The position numbers and the translations under genes are program-made. Shown here piece after piece: positions 3,211 through 46,693 of a stretch of DNA of 55,008 nt. The stretch is from a virus (Duplodnaviria > Heunggongvirae > Uroviricota > Caudoviricetes): positions 1 through 55,008 of IMG/VR virus record IMGVR_UViG_3300045988_134234; one strand, given 5' to 3'. The notes under the pieces were generated by a model, which worked only from the letters and a program-made list of their open reading frames with translations, was not told where the DNA came from and did not search any database. Numbering within the stretch: the first letter of the stretch is position 1; every line of letters begins with the position of its first letter.

Positions 3211-3229
3211 GCCCCGGCATGACCGGGGC
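3211..3229 (-). terminator. GC-rich hairpin downstream of Rha-like gene
   Basis: GCCCCGG-catga-CCGGGGC stem-loop; weak T tract; a similar hairpin follows the paralogous module at about 43979..43997. Confidence 0.3.
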
Positions 3230-3236
3230 AAATCTA

Positions 3237-4163
3237 TTAACTAACAATCCAGTCGGTCGCTGCTACATCTTCTGGCTGTAAATCAATCGCACAGATCTTG
3301 CCGTCGCGAATGGTGCGCCAGTTTTTCCGTGAGCCTCTTTCGGGCCATACCCAGACACTTTCAGGCCAGGATGCTCGACGGCATACGGTTGCATACCCTG
3401 TTTTAATCTTCTCTCTGGCGGTATGCAACGACAGGTTTGCCTTTGGACTTTCAGGCACAGGATGGTGAATGGCCTGAAATAGCCCCATCCTGGGATGATA
3501 CCAGCGTTTGTTACGTGGTTCTGCCTCCGACATAACCTGCTTAAAGGCTTTCCGGAAGGGGGCCAGGGCCACAATGGAGCGTCTCGCGAGCAAACCATCG
3601 GGAGTTAAAAACTCATGTGTATCGGTGGGAATCCGATACGCATTGACCAGGTTACGGCATTTGGCTTCAGTCAGGCCGCATTTCGCCGCTAACTGGCGGT
3701 AGCCAATGTAGCCTTCCGGAATATTGCCTTTCTTTATTTGCTCGACGGTTTCAGCGACTTTGGACACTTGTGCCGATACTTCGGCTACCTGGGCATTAAC
3801 GGCGTTGATCCGGCGTTCATGCTCAAGATGCATTTGCGCCATTTCGGCCAGGATTTCGGCTTTTGATTTTAACGGTCCCCTGGCATTCTCCAGTTCGCGC
3901 CAGCGGTCCACCAGCCGGGCGGTGAATTCGGGAGAGAGCTGCGCGACGACAATGATGCTATCGCGCTTGCCTTGCTCGCCTTCGAAGACGTAATAGCTCG
4001 CCGGGCGGCCTGCGGTGGGCTTTTCCTCAATTTGAGGAAAAGATATTACGCCCCGTTCCGCCAAGTGTTCAATGGTGCGTTTAACGTTATCAGGGCGCTT
4101 TCCTACCAGTTCCGCGATCTCAATGCTGGTCATTGTCGCTTTTTGAGAGATGGACAGATTCAT
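3237..4163 (-). CDS. Rha-family phage regulatory/antirepressor-like protein with DUF2829-like C-terminal domain
   Basis: N-terminus IEIAELVGKRPDNVKRTIEHL matches recalled Rha signature (IAE.FGK.H.NV.R.I..L); C-terminal 65 aa (CRRASW...VWVWPE...ATDWIVS) resembles the separate 70-aa ORF at 44006..44218. Confidence 0.6.
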   Translation of the reverse strand: MNLSISQKATMTSIEIAELVGKRPDNVKRTIEHLAERGVISFPQIEEKPTAGRPASYYVFEGEQGKRDSIIVVAQLSPEFTARLVDRWRELENARGPLKSKAEILAEMAQMHLEHERRINAVNAQVAEVSAQVSKVAETVEQIKKGNIPEGYIGYRQLAAKCGLTEAKCRNLVNAYRIPTDTHEFLTPDGLLARRSIVALAPFRKAFKQVMSEAEPRNKRWYHPRMGLFQAIHHPVPESPKANLSLHTAREKIKTGYATVCRRASWPESVWVWPERGSRKNWRTIRDGKICAIDLQPEDVAATDWIVS

Positions 4164-4378
4164 CAGTGCACCTCCACGCAGTTCATTGGCAGATTCCAGT
4201 AATTGAGGATCTCCATCGCATCAAGAGTGAAGCGAGCAGCAAAAATGCAGGGTTCTTCGGGAAGGTATGAGCGCGCCTCTGCTTCGGTAGCAGCCATTAC
4301 GCAGATATAAAGGTGTTTTTGGCAGGAATAGAAACGCCAGATAAATTCAGAATGAGTTGGGGTAGGGATAGTAGCCAT
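4163..4378 (-). CDS. small protein upstream of Rha-like gene (Icd/Ash-like position)
   Basis: 71 aa, AAGGAGG RBS, start overlaps stop of downstream gene; paralog at 44910..45134 shares EFIWRF...AATE.EARS motif. Confidence 0.5.
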   Translation of the reverse strand: MATIPTPTHSEFIWRFYSCQKHLYICVMAATEAEARSYLPEEPCIFAARFTLDAMEILNYWNLPMNCVEVH

Positions 4379-4379
4379 A

Positions 4380-4640
4380 TTGGCAGCCTCCTTTGACTAA
4401 GTTAAGGAGCTACCGCGTGAGGTTCCAATCTCAATGGCGGTAGCACTGACTGGGTTGGAACTACCGGCGTCAAAGGGAACCGGCCTGCCTTTCGGCAGCC
4501 CAGCCAGCACTACCATTGATCTCTGAGCTAAACGCTACGTATGGCTGTGCGATGGCGTGACACAAAAAAAGACGCTTTCGGCGTCTGTGTCGCCTTTGAC
4601 ATTATCCGGGGTTCCAATCCCGGCACCCGTTTTTCTAAGG
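4380..4640 (-). ncRNA. structured leader / candidate antisense-regulatory RNA (C4-like hypothesis)
   Basis: About 260 nt untranslated leader with repeated GATTGGAACC elements and a complementary GTTCCAACC element, multiple hairpins, and an anti-SD hairpin (CTCCTT...AAGGAG) sequestering the RBS of the 71-aa gene. Confidence 0.25.
4562..4586 (-). terminator. rho-independent terminator (minus strand)
   Basis: GACGC-cgaaa-GCGTC hairpin followed by T7 on minus strand. Confidence 0.55.
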
Positions 4641-4690
4641 TGCCGTAGAAATATACCTCACGATAATGCCAGGGCGCAACAGTCAGTATT

Positions 4691-4858
4691 TTATGCTTTG
4701 GCGGATTTCTTCCGGGCTTGCTTGCAGGCGTAGGCCATTGCTTTAGCTTTCACTTCATCCAGCTTTCCGGTGATCACTTCTTTTCCGAGAGTGACAAACC
4801 AGTCATAGCAACCGCCAGTAATGTTCTGGATTTGAAAGTTGAGGTAGCGAACGGTCAT
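4691..4858 (-). CDS. possible small protein (~55 aa)
   Basis: ORF below threshold read by eye (MTVRYLNFQIQNITGGCYDWFV...); G-rich RBS-like tract upstream; approximate coordinates. Confidence 0.3.
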   Translation of the reverse strand: MTVRYLNFQIQNITGGCYDWFVTLGKEVITGKLDEVKAKAMAYACKQARKKSAKA

Positions 4859-5179
4859 TTTGACCCCCCCAGCGCGAGTAAAGAATGCAGATTATCGCGT
4901 GAGTGGCGGACAACGAGTGATGGGAAAAGACAGTAGCTGTTCATAGTGTAGTGACTCCTTGCTTTCGGAGCCGCCATCGACTGTTCCACGGTCTGGTGGC
5001 GGCGCAATAAAGGTTGGAACACCGTGAGTCAACGGGGGCTTTTCAGCCACCTATATTGCACCGCCATTGGTATGGCGGCGGCAATCATACGAAAAACCAA
5101 ACGGTTTGTCTCAAAAAGTTGACCGGTGTACCAATCGGTTGTGAATGTACAACGGCGAATCTCACAATTCAACTTAAAA

Positions 5180-5202
5180 TGTTAGAAAATTAATTTATTA
5201 AT
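5180..5202. promoter_or_regulatory. operator-like motif TGTTAGAAAATTAATTTATTAA
   Basis: Member of a dispersed motif family (more than 12 copies) located at promoter regions. Confidence 0.4.
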
Positions 5203-5765: not shown

Positions 5766-5810
5766 AGAAATACCCGGTTTGTCTACATCGCCGCTATGGT
5801 TGATCAAATG

Positions 5811-5840
5811 TGTTAGAAAATCAAAATTGATTTTCTAACA
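5811..5840. promoter_or_regulatory. 30-bp near-perfect palindromic operator TGTTAGAAAATCAAA/ATTGATTTTCTAACA
   Basis: Inverted pair of the dispersed motif between divergent Ref-like gene and the 5882.. operon. Confidence 0.6.
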
Positions 5841-5881
5841 CAAAATGAAGATACTTTTTTCAGACGCTATATCAGGAGGTC

Positions 5882-10413: not shown

Positions 10414-10443
10414 TGTTAGAATATTGATTTTAATTTTCTAACA
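10414..10443. promoter_or_regulatory. operator-like inverted pair TGTTAGAA...TTTCTAACA
   Basis: Between phosphatase gene and the 10486 gene. Confidence 0.5.
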
Positions 10444-10485
10444 TATTATTTTACCGCTTGGAACAAAACAGAGTCGGTATACATT

Positions 10486-23405: not shown

Positions 23406-23462
23406 AGTACCCTCCGCAATAGGCGAGGGTACTTTACATTAAAATGCACTGTCTAAAAAGGT

Positions 23463-23484
23463 TGTTAGAAAATTAATTTATGAG
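23463..23484. promoter_or_regulatory. operator-like motif TGTTAGAAAATTAATTTATGAG
   Basis: Overlaps 3' end of cre-like gene, upstream of 23405 operon. Confidence 0.4.
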
Positions 23485-24786: not shown

Positions 24787-24859
24787 GAACAATCAAAAAA
24801 AAGCGGTTTTATCCTTTACTCACCTTGTTATTCAGCATAAATTTGTCACAGGACTTTTA

Positions 24860-24875
24860 TGTTAGAAAACTAAAT
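24860..24875. promoter_or_regulatory. operator-like motif TGTTAGAAAACTAAAT about 12 nt upstream of the 24888 ATG
   Basis: Motif immediately precedes RBS/start of the 345-aa gene. Confidence 0.45.
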
Positions 24876-29224: not shown

Positions 29225-29301
29225 TTATCCCCCGGATAGAAAAAGACCGAGGGGATGATAATCAGCTTGTTAATACTGAGAAGACTGTCAAAAACATGAT
29301 G

Positions 29302-29331
29302 TATTAGAAAATTAATATTAATTTACTAACA
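29302..29331. promoter_or_regulatory. operator-like imperfect palindrome TATTAGAAAATTAAT/ATTAATTTACTAACA
   Basis: Upstream of the 29224 start. Confidence 0.5.
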
Positions 29332-29715
29332 CTACCAGCGGGATAAACGAACAACATGCTTAACTTTTGCCTCCCACTTCCCTTTATGTTTGTTGATCAC
29401 CGCCTGGGCCATCTTCAGACTGGCTTCAAAATCGGCTTTTCGACCACTATTACCCACCAGCAACGCTCCGTCTATTTCAGGTAAGCATAAGTAATCCTGC
29501 TCGACGGTAAGCGGCATTGATGATGTAACCTGGCAGGCTTTCCATCTGAAGCGTATGCGCACACTCCTGACTGACATCACGACATAACCTGATATTGTGC
29601 TCTTGTGTCCGGCGTCTGTGCGTGTAGCCTTGCATGATGTTATCTTGCAGGTGATGATGTCCCAACCAATGTGCATCGCATCCTCAATGCGTAATTTAGT
29701 AGCCTCGTACATCAA
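29332..29715 (-). CDS. hypothetical protein (127 aa)
   Basis: ORF; overlaps next gene. Confidence 0.4.
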   Translation of the reverse strand: MMYEATKLRIEDAMHIGWDIITCKITSCKATRTDAGHKSTISGYVVMSVRSVRIRFRWKACQVTSSMPLTVEQDYLCLPEIDGALLVGNSGRKADFEASLKMAQAVINKHKGKWEAKVKHVVRLSRW

Positions 29716-30741: not shown

Positions 30742-30817
30742 TGGTGGCCCCTACCGGACTTGAACCGGTGACCGTGCGATTATGAGTCGCCCGCTCTAAC
30801 CACTGAGCTAAGGGGCC
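30742..30817 (-). tRNA. tRNA anticodon CAU (Met or Ile2 via lysidine)
   Basis: RC reads GGCCCCTTAGCTCAGTGGTTAGAGC...CTCATAA...GGTTCAAGTCC...GGGGCCACCA; resembles recalled E. coli ileX/ileY-type tRNA. Confidence 0.8.
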
Positions 30818-31789: not shown

Positions 31790-31865
31790 TGGTGCCGATT
31801 AACGGACTCGAACCGCTGACATCCTGCTTACAAGGCAGGCGCTCTACCAACTGAGCTAAACCGGC
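31790..31865 (-). tRNA. tRNA-Thr (anticodon UGU)
   Basis: RC reads GCCGGTTTAGCTCAGTTGGTAGAGC GCCTGCCTTGTAAGCAGG...GGTTCGAGTCC...AATCGGCACCA. Confidence 0.8.
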
Positions 31866-31867
31866 AT

Positions 31868-31943
31868 TGGCGATGGTGGATGGATTTGAACCATCGACCC
31901 GTTGATTAACAGTCAACCGCTCTAACCGCTGAGCTACACCATC
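31868..31943 (-). tRNA. tRNA-Asn (anticodon GUU)
   Basis: RC reads GATGGTGTAGCTCAGCGGTTAGAGC GGTTGACTGTTAATCAACG...GGTTCAAATCC...CACCATCGCCA. Confidence 0.8.
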
Positions 31944-33259: not shown

Positions 33260-33289
33260 TGTTAGAAAGACAATTCTAATTTTCTAACA
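33260..33289. promoter_or_regulatory. operator-like inverted pair TGTTAGAAA-N12-TTTCTAACA
   Basis: Perfect 9-bp arms; downstream of the 402-aa gene, at the head of the non-coding tRNA island. Confidence 0.5.
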
Positions 33290-33291
33290 CA

Positions 33292-34520: not shown

Positions 34521-34534
34521 TTAGTTTTCTAACA
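34521..34534. promoter_or_regulatory. operator-like motif (TTAGTTTTCTAACA) in promoter of the 402-aa gene
   Basis: About 20 nt upstream of the 34500 start. Confidence 0.4.
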
Positions 34535-34575
34535 TATTTTATTAGTATGCAATTTCAATAAAAAGACTCAGGCAA

Positions 34576-44005: not shown

Positions 44006-44218
44006 TCAAGTTACGATCCAATCATTACCGACTGCATCCGCCGTCGATAAATCGACTTCCCGGATCTGGTATCCATTGATACAAAACCATCCAGTAGTAG
44101 AGCTATTATCAGGCCAGACCCATACACCAACACTCCATGCTTTACGGCGGCACACTTCAGCCTGTCCTTCCCTGATTTTTTTTACCGCCTGCATGATGTC
44201 CATCACTCGCCTCCCCAA
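44006..44218 (-). CDS. DUF2829-like small protein (separate ORF; fused to Rha-like gene in the first module)
   Basis: AVKKIREGQAEVCRRKAW...VWVWP...NDWIVT parallels C-terminus of 3237..4163 product; overlaps upstream ORF by 16 nt in a different frame. Confidence 0.4.
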   Translation of the reverse strand: MGRRVMDIMQAVKKIREGQAEVCRRKAWSVGVWVWPDNSSTTGWFCINGYQIREVDLSTADAVGNDWIVT

Positions 44219-44910
44219 CCGATTACCTGGAATTGCCCCATCCTTGGGTGATACCAGCGTTTTCCTCGGTGTTCAGCCTCCGACATCATCAGGGTAAAGG
44301 CATTCATGAAGGGAGATAAGGCCACAATAGTACGACGCGACAATACCCCCTCTGGCGTCAAAAACTCATGCGTATCTGTGGGGATCCGGTAAGCGTTGAC
44401 CAGGTTGCGGCATTTGGCTTCAGTCAGGCCGCATTTCGCCGCCAACTGGCGATAGCCAATGTAGCCTTCTGGTATGTTGCCTTTCTTGATCTGCTCGACG
44501 GTTTCAGCGACCTGGCTAACCTTTGACTCAACAGCATGAAGCCGCTTTTGCTGCTGAACTGCATTCGCAGCCATTGCAGCGATCATCTCTATTTCGGTCA
44601 ACGGCTGGCGTACTTGTTCTTCCAGTTCGCGCCAGCGGTCCACCAGCCGGGCGGTGAATTCGGGAGAGAGCTGCGCGACGACGATAATGCTATCGCGCTT
44701 GCCTTGCTCGCCTTCGAAGACGTAAGCCTCAACACTACGTCGTAGTCCTAAGTTATTGATTTTTTCGAAAACCTCAATTTGAGGACGAACAATAACGCCA
44801 CCTTTGGCTAATGTCTCAATAGTGCGTTTCACATTGTCATGACGTTTTCCCACCAGCTCCGCGATCTCAATGCTGGTCATTGATGGCTTTTCGAGAATGC
44901 AGATATCCAT
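44203..44910 (-). CDS. Rha-family regulatory/antirepressor-like protein (paralog of 3237..4163)
   Basis: IEIAELVGKRHDNVKRTIETL; long stretches identical to the first module. Confidence 0.6.
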   Translation of the reverse strand: MDICILEKPSMTSIEIAELVGKRHDNVKRTIETLAKGGVIVRPQIEVFEKINNLGLRRSVEAYVFEGEQGKRDSIIVVAQLSPEFTARLVDRWRELEEQVRQPLTEIEMIAAMAANAVQQQKRLHAVESKVSQVAETVEQIKKGNIPEGYIGYRQLAAKCGLTEAKCRNLVNAYRIPTDTHEFLTPEGVLSRRTIVALSPFMNAFTLMMSEAEHRGKRWYHPRMGQFQVIGWGGE

Positions 44911-45134
44911 CAGTGAGCCTCCGCAATGCCGGGATTGGTAATATTGCGATACCAGGGATTGGTGTTTGGTTGTGGGGAAGTAGAGAAACGACCAGTGAGA
45001 ACGCCATACTGATCAGGGATCAGAGAACGGGCTTCTTTTTCAGTTGCGGCAATTGCGAAGTGATCGCAGTGTTTTTGCAGGGAGTGAAAACGCCAGATGA
45101 ATTCTGGACGTGAGCAAGGATTGGCATTAACCAT
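44910..45134 (-). CDS. small protein (paralog of 4163..4378)
   Basis: EFIWRFHSLQKH...AIAATEKEARS. Confidence 0.5.
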   Translation of the reverse strand: MVNANPCSRPEFIWRFHSLQKHCDHFAIAATEKEARSLIPDQYGVLTGRFSTSPQPNTNPWYRNITNPGIAEAH

Positions 45135-45159
45135 AGTTACGGCCTCGTAAGTTGATAAA

Positions 45160-45360
45160 CAACCTGCGACCCGCTGTCAAACAGGTGGCAGGACGTGACA
45201 GGGTTGACAGACTGGCACTTACGAAACCAGCAGGCCGAAGCCTCCCCATCACGCCCCACCATAATTCGGGCGTAACGTGGTTTTACGGACACAAAAATAC
45301 CGCAATATCGGAAATGTGCGGTTGTCCGCGTAAGTATTCAGGCTGTCAAACCTGGTCGCA
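45160..45360. repeat. TGTCAAAC / GTTGACAG short repeats in leader region
   Basis: CGCTGTCAAACAGG, GGGTTGACAGACTGG, GGCTGTCAAACCTGG: two direct copies plus one complementary copy. Confidence 0.4.
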
Positions 45361-45462
45361 GAATTTGCTACGACGGCATGAATATAAGCCTGAACATTAG
45401 AAAGATCAACAGAATTTTTATCAAATGCTGTTTTTTAGTGACAATGTAAATCATACATTCTT

Positions 45463-45491
45463 GATTAGAAACATCAATTTAATTTTCTAAC
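45463..45491. promoter_or_regulatory. operator-like inverted pair GATTAGAAA...TTTTCTAACA (plus a single copy at about 45395..45410)
   Basis: Upstream of second Icd/Ant-like module. Confidence 0.5.
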
Positions 45492-45549
45492 ATACATTTT
45501 CGAGCGATGAAATTCCCGCCGCACGGTTATTGTACAGTCAATCGCAACA

Positions 45550-46497: not shown

Positions 46498-46669
46498 CAG
46501 ATAGTTCCGTGAAAAATCTATCTACCGTATAAATCTATGCCAGTGGATTTATACACCCAAAAGCCGCTACTCAGCGGCTTTTGCTTTTTTTGGCAGTCGC
46601 TACCGAAGCAGTGACCGCGATCCTACTCGATCACGTGCCGTCGGATCAACAGTGTATAAAAACACACTG

Positions 46670-46693
46670 TGTTAGAAAATTAAGCTAGCTTTT
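46670..46693. promoter_or_regulatory. operator-like motif TGTTAGAAAATTAAGCTAGC
   Basis: In the 200-bp gap upstream of the 46497 start. Confidence 0.45.

Follow-up and report, generated by a model that had tools for sequence, protein, structure and literature searches.

How is an operon controlled in which a small gene and an antirepressor-like gene follow a long, structured and repeat-bearing untranslated leader? For the module at positions 3237–4640 an earlier note had proposed C4-antisense-like control of an icd/ant operon, as in the immI operon of phages P1 and P7. Our analysis bears this out: the leader carries a full-length match to the C4 family RF01695, the a and b elements are laid out as in P1 immI, and these elements covary in triplets. 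We conclude that the locus is very probably an immI-type immunity operon under the control of a C4-family antisense RNA. The window, by which we mean the whole stretch of 55,008 nt that was analysed, is a D6-like, P1-related phage-plasmid. For plasmids of this kind c4, icd and an antirepressor have already been reported, and an ImmI-like region plus a second c4-icd region have been described in D6-like plasmid prophages (PMC6799933). The module is real, but it belongs to a type of phage immunity switch that was well known before, and since it is a standard C4/IsrK-controlled immunity operon there is nothing new to explain. The earlier picture does need additions, among them that the upstream part of the leader, judged by its sequence, is an IsrK-type RNA with an intrinsic terminator of its own. 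All RNA elements and genes of the module lie on the minus strand, and their coordinates are collected in the table.

Table. Features of the module and its upstream neighbourhood in window coordinates
Feature	Position	Strand	Evidence or remark
Rha/Roi-family antirepressor-like gene, 308 aa	3237..4163	-	PF09669; PHROG 63 "anti-repressor Ant", E = 1e-62
icd-like gene, 71 aa	4163..4378	-	NCBIfam NF033153 phage_ICD_like, 49.4 bits (cut-off 25); PHROG 1426
Hairpin enclosing b2 and Shine-Dalgarno	4382..4414	-	Predicted fold; CUCCUU pairs with AAGGAG
Target b2 (GUCAAAGG)	4397..4390	-	Overlaps icd Shine-Dalgarno AAGGAGG, 4393..4387
39-codon ORF	4397..4516	-	AUG inside C4, stop at first base of b2; PF10554 Phage_ASH, 32.2 bits
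Target a2 (UUGGAAC)	4422..4428	-	Directly 3' of C4; full repeat GATTGGAACC at 4430..4421
C4 antisense RNA gene	4433..4520	-	Rfam RF01695, 77.1 bits (gathering score 45), E = 2e-13, full length 1-87
Spacer, terminator to C4	4521..4564	-	Assigned by position only
IsrK-type leader RNA	4565..4643	-	Rfam RF01394, 62.7 bits (gathering score 50), model positions 1-77 of 77
Predicted leader start site	G4643	-	Matches the first position of the Rfam isrK model
Predicted sigma-70 leader promoter	4650..4679	-	-35 TTGCGC 4679..4674, 18-nt spacer, -10 TATATT 4655..4650
Tandem upstream C4-like RNA (C4-ii)	4992..5071	-	Rfam C4, 42.3 bits, just below gathering score 45; local E = 2e-6

The Rfam search for C4 that had been suggested as a check returned a match far above the gathering score of the family. 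The 88-nt segment has the architecture of C4, a long closing stem enclosing two hairpins, and folds with a minimum free energy (MFE) of -46.5 kcal/mol (z = -5.0), the MFE structure being also the centroid. Among 32 distinct homologous leaders, compensatory changes are seen in 8 of the 16 pairs of the long stem and in 4/5 pairs of hairpin 1. The fold leaves two short segments accessible, one (b', CCUUUGAC, 4476..4469) in the loop of hairpin 2 and the other (a', GUUCCAA, 4461..4455) in the 3' joining strand. The stem is followed by a 3' tail CCA, and the GCCA after the closing stem is invariant among the homologous leaders. C4 RNAs arise from the transcript of their own operon, with RNase P making the 5' end of a stable species of about 77 nt, and the present one would be processed likewise.

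These accessible segments have their partners in the repeats of the leader. The direct repeat described earlier is present as GATTGGAACC at 4619..4610 and 4430..4421, exactly two copies in the 55-kb window (chance expectation 0.07; at least two copies in 0 of 100 shuffles), and the complementary element as GTTCCAACC at 4461..4453, between them. A second complementary set consists of GTCAAAGG at 4600..4593 and 4397..4390 with its partner CCTTTGAC at 4476..4469; the earlier note had caught the a set and overlooked the b set. The composite TTGGAAC-N(10-40)-GTCAAAGG occurs twice, 0.01 occurrences being expected, and a chance origin of the repeats is ruled out by these shuffles and expectations (GATTGGAACC 0.07; composite 0.01). 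On their sequence and on their order, which is that of the annotated P1 immI, we read the repeats as the targets a1 and a2 and the complementary element as a'. Both a' and b' are perfectly complementary, over 7 bp and 8 bp respectively, to one site downstream (a2, b2) and to one site upstream within the IsrK-like RNA, where a1 (UUGGAAC, 4617..4611) occupies the loop of the second hairpin and b1 (GUCAAAGG) lies at 4600..4593.

Had the repeats lost their conservation or complementarity in homologous modules, the antisense reading would have been in difficulty; they do the opposite and covary in triplets over the 32 distinct leaders. The a'/a2 helix is paired in 100% of these leaders with both sides changed in 4 of 7 pairs, the b'/b2 helix likewise in 100% with both sides changed in 3 of 8, and the covariation with a' and b' extends to a1 and b1. 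Pairing across the leaders holds in 99.8% and 100% of cells, with 7 of 15 pairs changed on both sides, while slid controls pair at 25-58%. The leaders have a covariation score of 0.40 and shuffles one of 0.13, and 0/500 shuffles attain the observed value. In an allele survey of 81 IMG/VR loci together with D6 and the window we found seven combinations, and in six of them a1/a'/a2 and b1/b'/b2 change together; the series comprises three b alleles and four a alleles, each altered in triplicate. This concerted change of the three a copies and of the three b copies is strong evidence for the antisense mechanism. In a natural recombinant (L033) a mismatched a1 is tolerated, so the upstream copy may be dispensable. 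Single-sequence duplex energies of the 7-8-nt helices are weakly better than shuffles (z between -0.9 and -2.7); over all comparisons of antisense segments with target regions against 1000 shuffles z ranged from -0.1 to -4.3, and in the second module (ii) the best duplex lay away from the expected site. Such energy tests are too weak for helices of 7-8 nt, and the case therefore rests on covariation and not on thermodynamics.

The earlier note had also seen an anti-Shine-Dalgarno hairpin occluding the ribosome binding site. The hairpin is present, but it is no more stable than shuffled sequence (z = -0.67), and in homologues it is paired in 94.9% of cells with zero compensatory changes. Keeping the ribosome away would fall chiefly to b' paired with b2 across the Shine-Dalgarno sequence, with the hairpin in cis secondary. 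A rival reading is a purely cis-acting attenuator, a model in which alternative structures would set both read-through of the terminator and access to the ribosome binding site, with no diffusible RNA and no role in immunity. Such a model can point to the enclosed Shine-Dalgarno sequence, to the MFE fold of the 284-nt leader, in which a1/b1 pair in cis with a'/b' (z = -4.3), and to the position of the terminator between a1/b1 and a'/b'. We nevertheless consider it very improbable. Membership in the C4 family is strong, and the C4 RNAs of P1 and P7 are processed, trans-acting repressors (PMC8546580); the very stable fold of C4 itself, with its many compensatory pairs, leaves a' and b' exposed and not paired in cis; and the leader cassette, which shifts as a unit between unrelated flanks and is exchanged between phage lineages, shows an allelic diversity in a and b typical of specificity determinants.

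Upstream of C4, the distance from the 5' end of the IsrK model at 4643 to the icd ATG at 4378 is 265 nt, in agreement with the roughly 260 nt estimated earlier for the leader. The -35 core TTGCG and a TAT-containing -10 are retained in 3/3 upstream lineages of homologues, yet the promoter is kept here as inferred because a consensus promoter scan did not flag 4650..4679. The IsrK-like element would fold into three stem-loops and a weak fourth stem, and it ends in the Rho-independent terminator that is a hallmark of the Hfq-binding RNA IsrK (stem 4586..4570 plus a U7 tail); together with the C4 fold this shows the several hairpins described before to be real. The Rfam c4-a1b1 model overlaps the element weakly, at 22 bits. 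The spacer that follows is variable and partly deleted among homologous leaders, and, by analogy with P1, C4 processing presumably cuts it away.

The presence of an IsrK-type RNA raises the question whether activation of the kind known from isrK-orf45-anrP of Gifsy-1 could be the dominant control, with C4 serving chiefly as a structural element of the message. Cis pairing of IsrK with C4 would then keep the full-length transcript inactive, the short RNA would open it in trans, and translation of the 39-codon ORF that overlaps C4 would drive the downstream genes. The isrK match is good and its terminator intact, the cis pairing in the leader fold resembles "structure A" (PMC4825925), the ORF runs from an AUG in C4 to the first base of b2, and both translation of orf45 and trans-activation by IsrK have been demonstrated experimentally in Gifsy-1 (PMC4825925). 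The ORF itself is less accommodating. It stops 19 nt ahead of the icd ATG with no overlap into a following gene, and icd, with a Shine-Dalgarno sequence of its own, intervenes; no convincing Shine-Dalgarno sequence precedes its AUG at 4516; its stop varies by lineage, falling before b2, in frame with icd or out of frame, so that the frame relative to icd is not conserved; its P1 equivalent runs for 14 codons before closing; and substitutions that are compensatory in the RNA are non-synonymous in the protein. Moreover a2 and b2 covary with C4 as tightly as a1 and b1 do, which a model of cis structure alone does not need. We regard dominance of IsrK-type activation as somewhat unlikely here, and it overlaps with C4 antisense control rather than excluding it.

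The same ORF invites a further reading, that 4516..4397 makes a small "Ash family" protein and that the RNA is not the functional product. Its translation scores 32.2 bits with Phage_ASH (PF10554; cut-off 26), PGAP places an "ash family protein" at the same position in near-identical plasmids, and the ORF overlapping C4 is open in 32/32 distinct leaders. It corresponds to orf45 of Gifsy-1 and to that PGAP entry. Against a protein product, the residues diverge just where the RNA stems compensate (VLAGLPKG against GCVVASSE or GCMGLPSG), neither the position of the stop nor the frame relative to icd is conserved, and the P1 equivalent is closed. The equivalents in Gifsy-1 and in the third module (iii) are without a family match, NCBIfam yields none for the ORFs overlapping the C4 RNAs, and the conservation is accounted for by the covariance-model score and by pair covariation. 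A functional Ash protein in place of the RNA is thus scarcely credible to us, and the ORF probably arises incidentally from the RNA gene.

Of the two genes under this control, the small protein is Icd-like, as NCBIfam NF033153 indicates, and is 63% identical to P1 Icd (E = 6e-28); by analogy it would inhibit cell division and be needed for expression of ant, the start of which overlaps the icd stop (UGAUG). The larger product had been described as a Rha-family antirepressor-like protein, and this holds: PHROG 63 is matched strongly, and a Phage_pRha domain (PF09669) at residues 11-93 is marginal, at 30.6 bits against a cut-off of 29.9. It is 85% identical to D6 orf82, and in tblastn it matches Roi/Rha proteins of Stx phages, HK-type phages and APSE phages. 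Filing it as a homologue of P1 Ant1/2 was rejected, since BLASTP against P1 Ant1 gave no significant similarity (best E = 0.015, over a 67-aa low-information stretch); similarity to AnrP of Gifsy-1 is not significant either. As this cargo is homologous to neither of the experimentally characterised ones, P1 Ant1/2 and Gifsy-1 AnrP, we assume from its position and family annotation that it acts as an antirepressor on the D6-type C1 repressor.

Under C4 antisense control the locus would probably work as follows. Minus-strand transcription would start near 4643, and some transcripts would end at the intrinsic terminator at about 4565 to give a 79-nt IsrK-like RNA bearing a1 and b1. Read-through transcripts would contain C4 (4520..4433). 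By analogy with P1 it would be excised from them, with RNase P acting at the 5' end, to leave a stable species of about 77-88 nt that displays b' in a hairpin loop and a' in a single-stranded joint. C4 could then pair, in cis or in trans, with a2 and b2; the complementarity and covariation are observed, and repression is what we infer from them. As b2 overlaps the icd Shine-Dalgarno sequence, we propose that icd would remain untranslated. In P1 the coupled gene depends on icd translation, and without it the transcript is also exposed to premature termination; if the same applied to the ant-like gene here, which starts at the icd stop, the Rha protein would be off in the lysogen as well as in a superinfecting phage with the same a and b alleles. 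The a1 and b1 copies in the IsrK-like RNA may compete for C4 as a decoy, and an excess of the short RNA may titrate C4 and turn the operon on, as IsrK does in Gifsy-1. By analogy with P1 and P7, C4 would repress icd/ant in trans, with the a and b sequences setting the specificity of immunity. The window carries GGAAC and GUCAAAGG and D6 carries GAGAC and GCAAAAGG, from which we predict that the two are heteroimmune at immI. The allelic differences fit the heteroimmunity logic of P1 and P7 reportedly set out by Citron and Schuster in 1990.

Among known systems, immI of P1 and P7 has the same layout: promoter, a1, b1, C4, a2, b2 at the icd ribosome binding site, icd and a coupled gene follow each other as in the P1 annotation, and the RNA belongs to the same family, with a of 7 nt, b of 8 nt and the similar Icd. 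The two differ in that the a1/b1 segment here is of the IsrK type while that of P1 is of the c4-a1b1 type, in the cargo, which here is of the Rha/Roi family with no significant similarity to Ant1/2, and in the absence of kilA-repL downstream. An extra C4-like module is inserted here between a C1-operator-like site and the leader promoter, and the window additionally holds a true P1-type module at about 45.2 kb. Gifsy-1 shares the order of an IsrK RNA with its terminator, a C4-family RNA (Rfam finds both) and an antirepressor-like gene, as well as pairing of IsrK with the C4 segment in the read-through transcript, seen here in the fold and there in PMC4825925; by eye the Gifsy-1 locus has matching a/b sets of its own. 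There the short form of IsrK switches on translation of the downstream antirepressor-like gene in trans, and the read-through transcript yields a processed species of about 80 nt, STnc1160 (PMC4825925). Gifsy-1 has no icd, however, and its C4-overlapping orf45 is coupled directly to anrP, whereas the 39-codon ORF here ends before a separate icd; AnrP is unrelated to the Ant-like protein; and Gifsy-1 is an integrated lambdoid prophage of Salmonella, the present element a plasmid prophage.

Phage D6 (NC_050154) and the D6-like plasmid prophages (pYU39_89, PMC6799933) are of the same genome type at about 92% identity, with the same gene order mat, simB-like, pmgF, ant, icd, ref, but the alleles of D6 differ at both elements (GAGAC/GUCUC and GCAAAAGG/CCUUUUGC). 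The CI RNA of P4 (seqA/seqC) is alike in that a processed leader RNA pairs with flanking complementary repeats and silences downstream genes, a comparison already drawn for the IsrK locus (PMC4825925). P4 thereby terminates transcription of its replication genes prematurely, whereas here a translational block of icd would result. The Pfam "Ash" family, which matches the translation of the C4 gene here, was named after P4. The CA RNA in the anti-immunity region of N15 is said to follow the same processed-leader-RNA logic.

The practical value of these findings lies in annotation. The D6 RefSeq record has no RNA annotated in this region and carries a hypothetical ORF on the opposite strand instead; in public annotations this spurious ORF and the "ash family protein" ORF stand in place of the RNA genes, and the label "Ant" masks a Rha/Roi cargo unrelated to P1 Ant. 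The natural allele series in turn provides a ready-made map of the bases that set immunity specificity.

The window also holds further C4-like RNAs. The tandem upstream C4-ii, which lacks annotation, folds with an MFE of -36.5 kcal/mol (z = -5.3) and is present in 25 D6-like sequences (D6, the window and 23 IMG/VR loci). A 29-codon ORF (4944..4855) and then a 55-aa ORF (4858..4691) follow 3' of it and run into the leader of the module; its target sites can be named only tentatively. C4-ii and the C4 of the module share the a' element GUUCCAAC, and C4-ii could therefore bind a1, a2 and the IsrK-like decoy of the module. The third, P1-type module lies at about 45.2 kb, and each of the paralogous modules has matching a/b sets of its own. 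One may imagine a layered network in which C4-ii gates the two small ORFs and three C4 specificities with partial cross-talk form a reassorting immunity code. We find this doubtful; if true, it would mean that a and b elements reassort independently, as a combinatorial code swapped between D6-like and P1-like plasmids. The C1 operator sequence of P1 is absent from the window. A 15-mer, ATGTTAGAAAATTAA, is present in 12 copies against 0.14 expected, one of them at 5179-5193, upstream of the tandem C4-like module, and another upstream of the 45-kb module.

The operon under study has all of its genes on the minus strand of the window and runs from a plausible promoter through two structured RNA elements and an icd-like gene into a Rha-type ant-like gene, the start of which overlaps the icd-like stop codon (UGAUG). 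Scanning the whole window against Rfam with curated thresholds matched both RNA elements at full length. The upstream element belongs to the isrK family (62.7 bits; gathering score 50), and its 3' end is an intrinsic terminator made up of a stem (4586..4570) and a T7 run. The downstream element is a C4 antisense RNA (77.1 bits; gathering score 45), which bears out the C4-like arrangement that the earlier note had proposed, and it folds into the family shape of two hairpins inside a long closing stem (MFE -46.5 kcal/mol, z = -5.0). Between the ant-like stop codon and a pmgF-like gene lies a perfect 6-bp GC hairpin (CCCCGG-N5-CCGGGG, 3212-3228), which CUUUAA follows on the minus strand; possible roles are weak termination and protection of the RNA end.

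Features of the C4-type modules and associated sites in the window
Feature	Position	Strand	Remarks
Plausible promoter	TTGCGC 4679..4674; TATATT 4655..4650	minus	18-nt spacer
isrK-like element	4643..4565	minus	79 nt; Rfam RF01394
Spacer	between the 79-nt and 88-nt elements	minus	44 nt
C4 antisense RNA element	4520..4433	minus	88 nt; Rfam RF01695
Stretch from C4 to icd-like start		minus	54 nt; ends AAGGAGG and ATG (4378)
icd-like gene	4378..4163	minus	71 codons
Rha-type ant-like gene	4163..3237	minus	308 codons
Tandem C4-like RNA	5071..4992	minus	below Rfam threshold
29-codon ORF	4855-4944	minus	3' of tandem C4-like RNA
55-aa ORF	4691-4858	minus	3' of tandem C4-like RNA; PHROG 7786 (unknown function)
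P1-type immI module	44006-45387	minus
c4-a1b1 of P1-type module	45387..45335	minus	Rfam
C4 of P1-type module	45266..45181	minus	Rfam
Icd-like gene of P1-type module	45134..44910	minus
Split 'ant' ORFs of P1-type module	44910..44203; 44218..44006	minus	235 aa; 70 aa
ATGTTAGAAAATTAA sites, first half	5179-5193, 5810-5841, 10430-10444, 23462-23476, 24859-24873
ATGTTAGAAAATTAA sites, second half	29301-29332, 33276-33290, 34521-34535, 45479-45493, 46669-46683

The pairing sites are named here after the annotated P1 immI region, with targets a1 and b1 located 5' of C4, targets a2 and b2 located 3' of it, and antisense segments a' and b' within it. Element a is the 7-nt element adjoining C4, here UUGGAAC, and a' (GUUCCAA) lies in the 3' joining strand of C4; element b, of 8 nt and placed at the ribosome-binding site, is here GUCAAAGG, and b' (CCUUUGAC) lies in the loop of hairpin 2. 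The direct repeats and complementary element described previously are confirmed: GATTGGAACC occurs exactly twice in the 55 kb (4619..4610 and 4430..4421; 0.07 expected by chance, at least two copies in 0 of 100 shuffles), and its complement GTTCCAACC is found at 4461..4453, between the copies. That description covered the a set and missed the b set, which consists of GTCAAAGG at two places (4600..4593 and 4397..4390) and the complementary CCTTTGAC at 4476..4469. The composite TTGGAAC-N(10-40)-GTCAAAGG occurs twice against 0.01 expected, and the icd Shine-Dalgarno sequence (4393..4387) lies partly within b2 (4397..4390). The reported hairpins are real, and the one enclosing the Shine-Dalgarno sequence (4414..4382) is present, but its stability taken alone does not exceed that of shuffled sequences (z = -0.67); it is 94.9% paired in homologues, with no compensatory change seen in it among 32 leaders. 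When the whole leader (284 nt) is folded, the MFE structure pairs a1/b1 in cis with a'/b', which corresponds to the inactive 'structure A' of PMC4825925.

Conservation and complementarity of the repeats in homologous modules had been set beforehand as a test, for which we fetched 80 IMG/VR loci encoding relatives of the window Icd and extracted the six a/b elements from each. Leaving out one locus that lacks the leader, the 79 remaining loci together with phage D6 and the window carry seven allele combinations, built from the a alleles GGAAC, GAGAC, GGUCU, and GGCCU and the b alleles GUCAAAGG, GCAAAAGG, and GUCUAAGG; the window has GGAAC with GUCAAAGG and D6 has GAGAC with GCAAAAGG. Upstream target, C4 segment, and downstream target change jointly in six of the seven. 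The exception is a natural recombinant on an IMG/VR contig (L033), where a1 is UUGAGAC, facing a' GUUCCAA and a2 UUGGAAC; a mismatched upstream target is thus tolerated, at least transiently. In the covariation alignment of 32 distinct leaders, a1:a' and b1:b' are paired in 99.8% of cells (33–58% in slid controls) and a2:a' and b2:b' in 100%, each with both-sided change in 7 of 15 pairs; the covariation score of the upstream pairings is 0.40 against 0.13 when shuffled, a value reached by 0 of 500 shuffles. Compensatory pairs are also found in the C4 closing stem (8/16) and in hairpin 1 (4/5). The 265-nt leader (window 4379-4643) is 96–98% identical to that of some P1-like contigs (L062, L070, L072), whose 150 nt upstream and gene after icd are unrelated (~60%) and whose icd is only ~73% identical; the RNA leader cassette is therefore exchanged horizontally as a unit.

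The small protein and Rha-family antirepressor-like gene recognized in the earlier note are likewise supported. NCBIfam assigns the 71-aa protein to an Icd-like family (NF033153, 49.4 bits), and it shares 63% identity with P1 Icd. The 308-aa protein carries a Rha domain at its N terminus (PF09669, 30.6 bits; cut-off 29.9) and hits PHROG 63 'anti-repressor Ant' (E = 1e-62), with Roi/Rha proteins as its phage relatives. It shows no significant similarity to P1 Ant1 or to Gifsy-1 AnrP, and 'Ant' should therefore be read as a label by position and family, without homology to a characterised antirepressor. For the closest plasmids (E. marmotae NZ_CP099353, 482-1463), the incomplete PLSDB gene table has no CDS at this gene, which may be flagged there as a pseudogene or simply be absent from the table.

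P1 immI has its parts in the same order: a1, b1, C4, a2, b2, icd, and then a coupled downstream gene. According to work of the Schuster laboratory, and in part to the P1 annotation, C4 in P1 and P7 is cut from the leader, pairs with a2 and b2, and blocks icd translation. By analogy, C4 would here be cut out of the leader and pair with a2 and b2, blocking icd translation, and the downstream gene would be kept off via translational coupling and polarity. Gifsy-1 has isrK and then C4 (Rfam), within an interval termed orf45/STnc1160, and experiments on it have shown that the read-through transcript is translationally silent, that short IsrK activates it in trans, and that an ~80-nt RNA is processed from it (PMC4825925). 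If the Gifsy-1 scheme holds, the terminated IsrK-like RNA with a1 and b1 would compete for C4 and hence act as an activator. Family membership, geometry, complementarity, and covariation of the C4 module are directly observed, and the reading as a C4-antisense-controlled icd/ant operon is supported by family match, layout, and covariation.

The feature is genuine and of a well-known type: Rfam has families for the two RNA parts, and each has been described in this group of phages. The region shares its gene order and ~92% identity with the P1-related plasmid prophage Escherichia phage D6, and it reaches 98.6% identity with E. marmotae, E. coli, and Salmonella plasmids of ~90–94 kb; 456 PLSDB records match in all. 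In D6-like plasmids, c4, icd, and an antirepressor have been reported from the ImmI-like region, along with a second c4-icd region (PMC6799933). In some Stx-phage records, 'isrK' and then 'C4 antisense RNA' are annotated ahead of a downstream gene. The P1-type module at ~45 kb and the Gifsy-1 locus, which has its own matching a and b sets, are independent replicates of the C4 arrangement. In the P1-type module the a element (UUUGACAG/CUGUCAA) is that of P1, whereas the b element (ACUUACG/CGUAAGU, against GUUAGUG/CACUAAC in P1) departs from that of P1 in all three copies. The Rha-type 'ant' of this module shares 70% identity with the ant-like protein of the main operon and is split, which could reflect a frameshift, a pseudogene, or two genes.

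A 39-codon ORF (4516..4397, minus) opens at an AUG within C4, matches Pfam PF10554 Phage_ASH above cut-off (32.2 bits), and is labeled 'ash family protein' by PGAP in near-identical plasmids. Its residue changes track the compensatory changes in the RNA stems, its stop and frame are variable, and the P1 equivalent is closed after 14 codons; we regard the ORF as a by-product of the RNA gene, and it may have an orf45-like coupling role. The substitution pattern at 4397-4516 fits an RNA gene, and thus part of the Ash family may have been built on translations of C4/CI-type RNA genes. On the opposite strand, D6 'orf84' (4496-4795, plus; approximately window 4434-4733, plus) spans both the isrK-like RNA and C4; it probably results from calling a spurious ORF across RNA genes.

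Only the clean natural allele series and a tandem, sub-threshold C4-like RNA go a little beyond the literature consulted. The latter adjoins the studied leader on its upstream side, reaches 42.3 bits with the C4 model (threshold 45; local E = 2e-6), and has a fold z of -5.3; the 29- and 55-codon ORFs behind it extend into the leader promoter. Twenty-five D6-like sequences carry this RNA (D6, the window, and 23 IMG/VR loci), and no annotation of it was seen in the D6 and plasmid records examined. The a' core GUUCCA is common to it and the main C4 (GUUCCAAC in the window), and its target sites are tentative. With up to two mismatches allowed, the window contains 12 copies of the 15-mer ATGTTAGAAAATTAA where 0.14 would be expected, including two inverted pairs, with copies upstream of the tandem C4-like module, the 45-kb module, and a ref-like gene. 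At the equivalent place, P1-like relatives carry a sequence very similar to the C1 operator of P1 (cf. annotated Oc4), which makes the 15-mer a candidate operator of the D6-type C1 repressor. Three tRNA genes (30745-30817, 31793-31865, and 31871-31943, minus; Rfam tRNA, 68–75 bits) are also present in the window.
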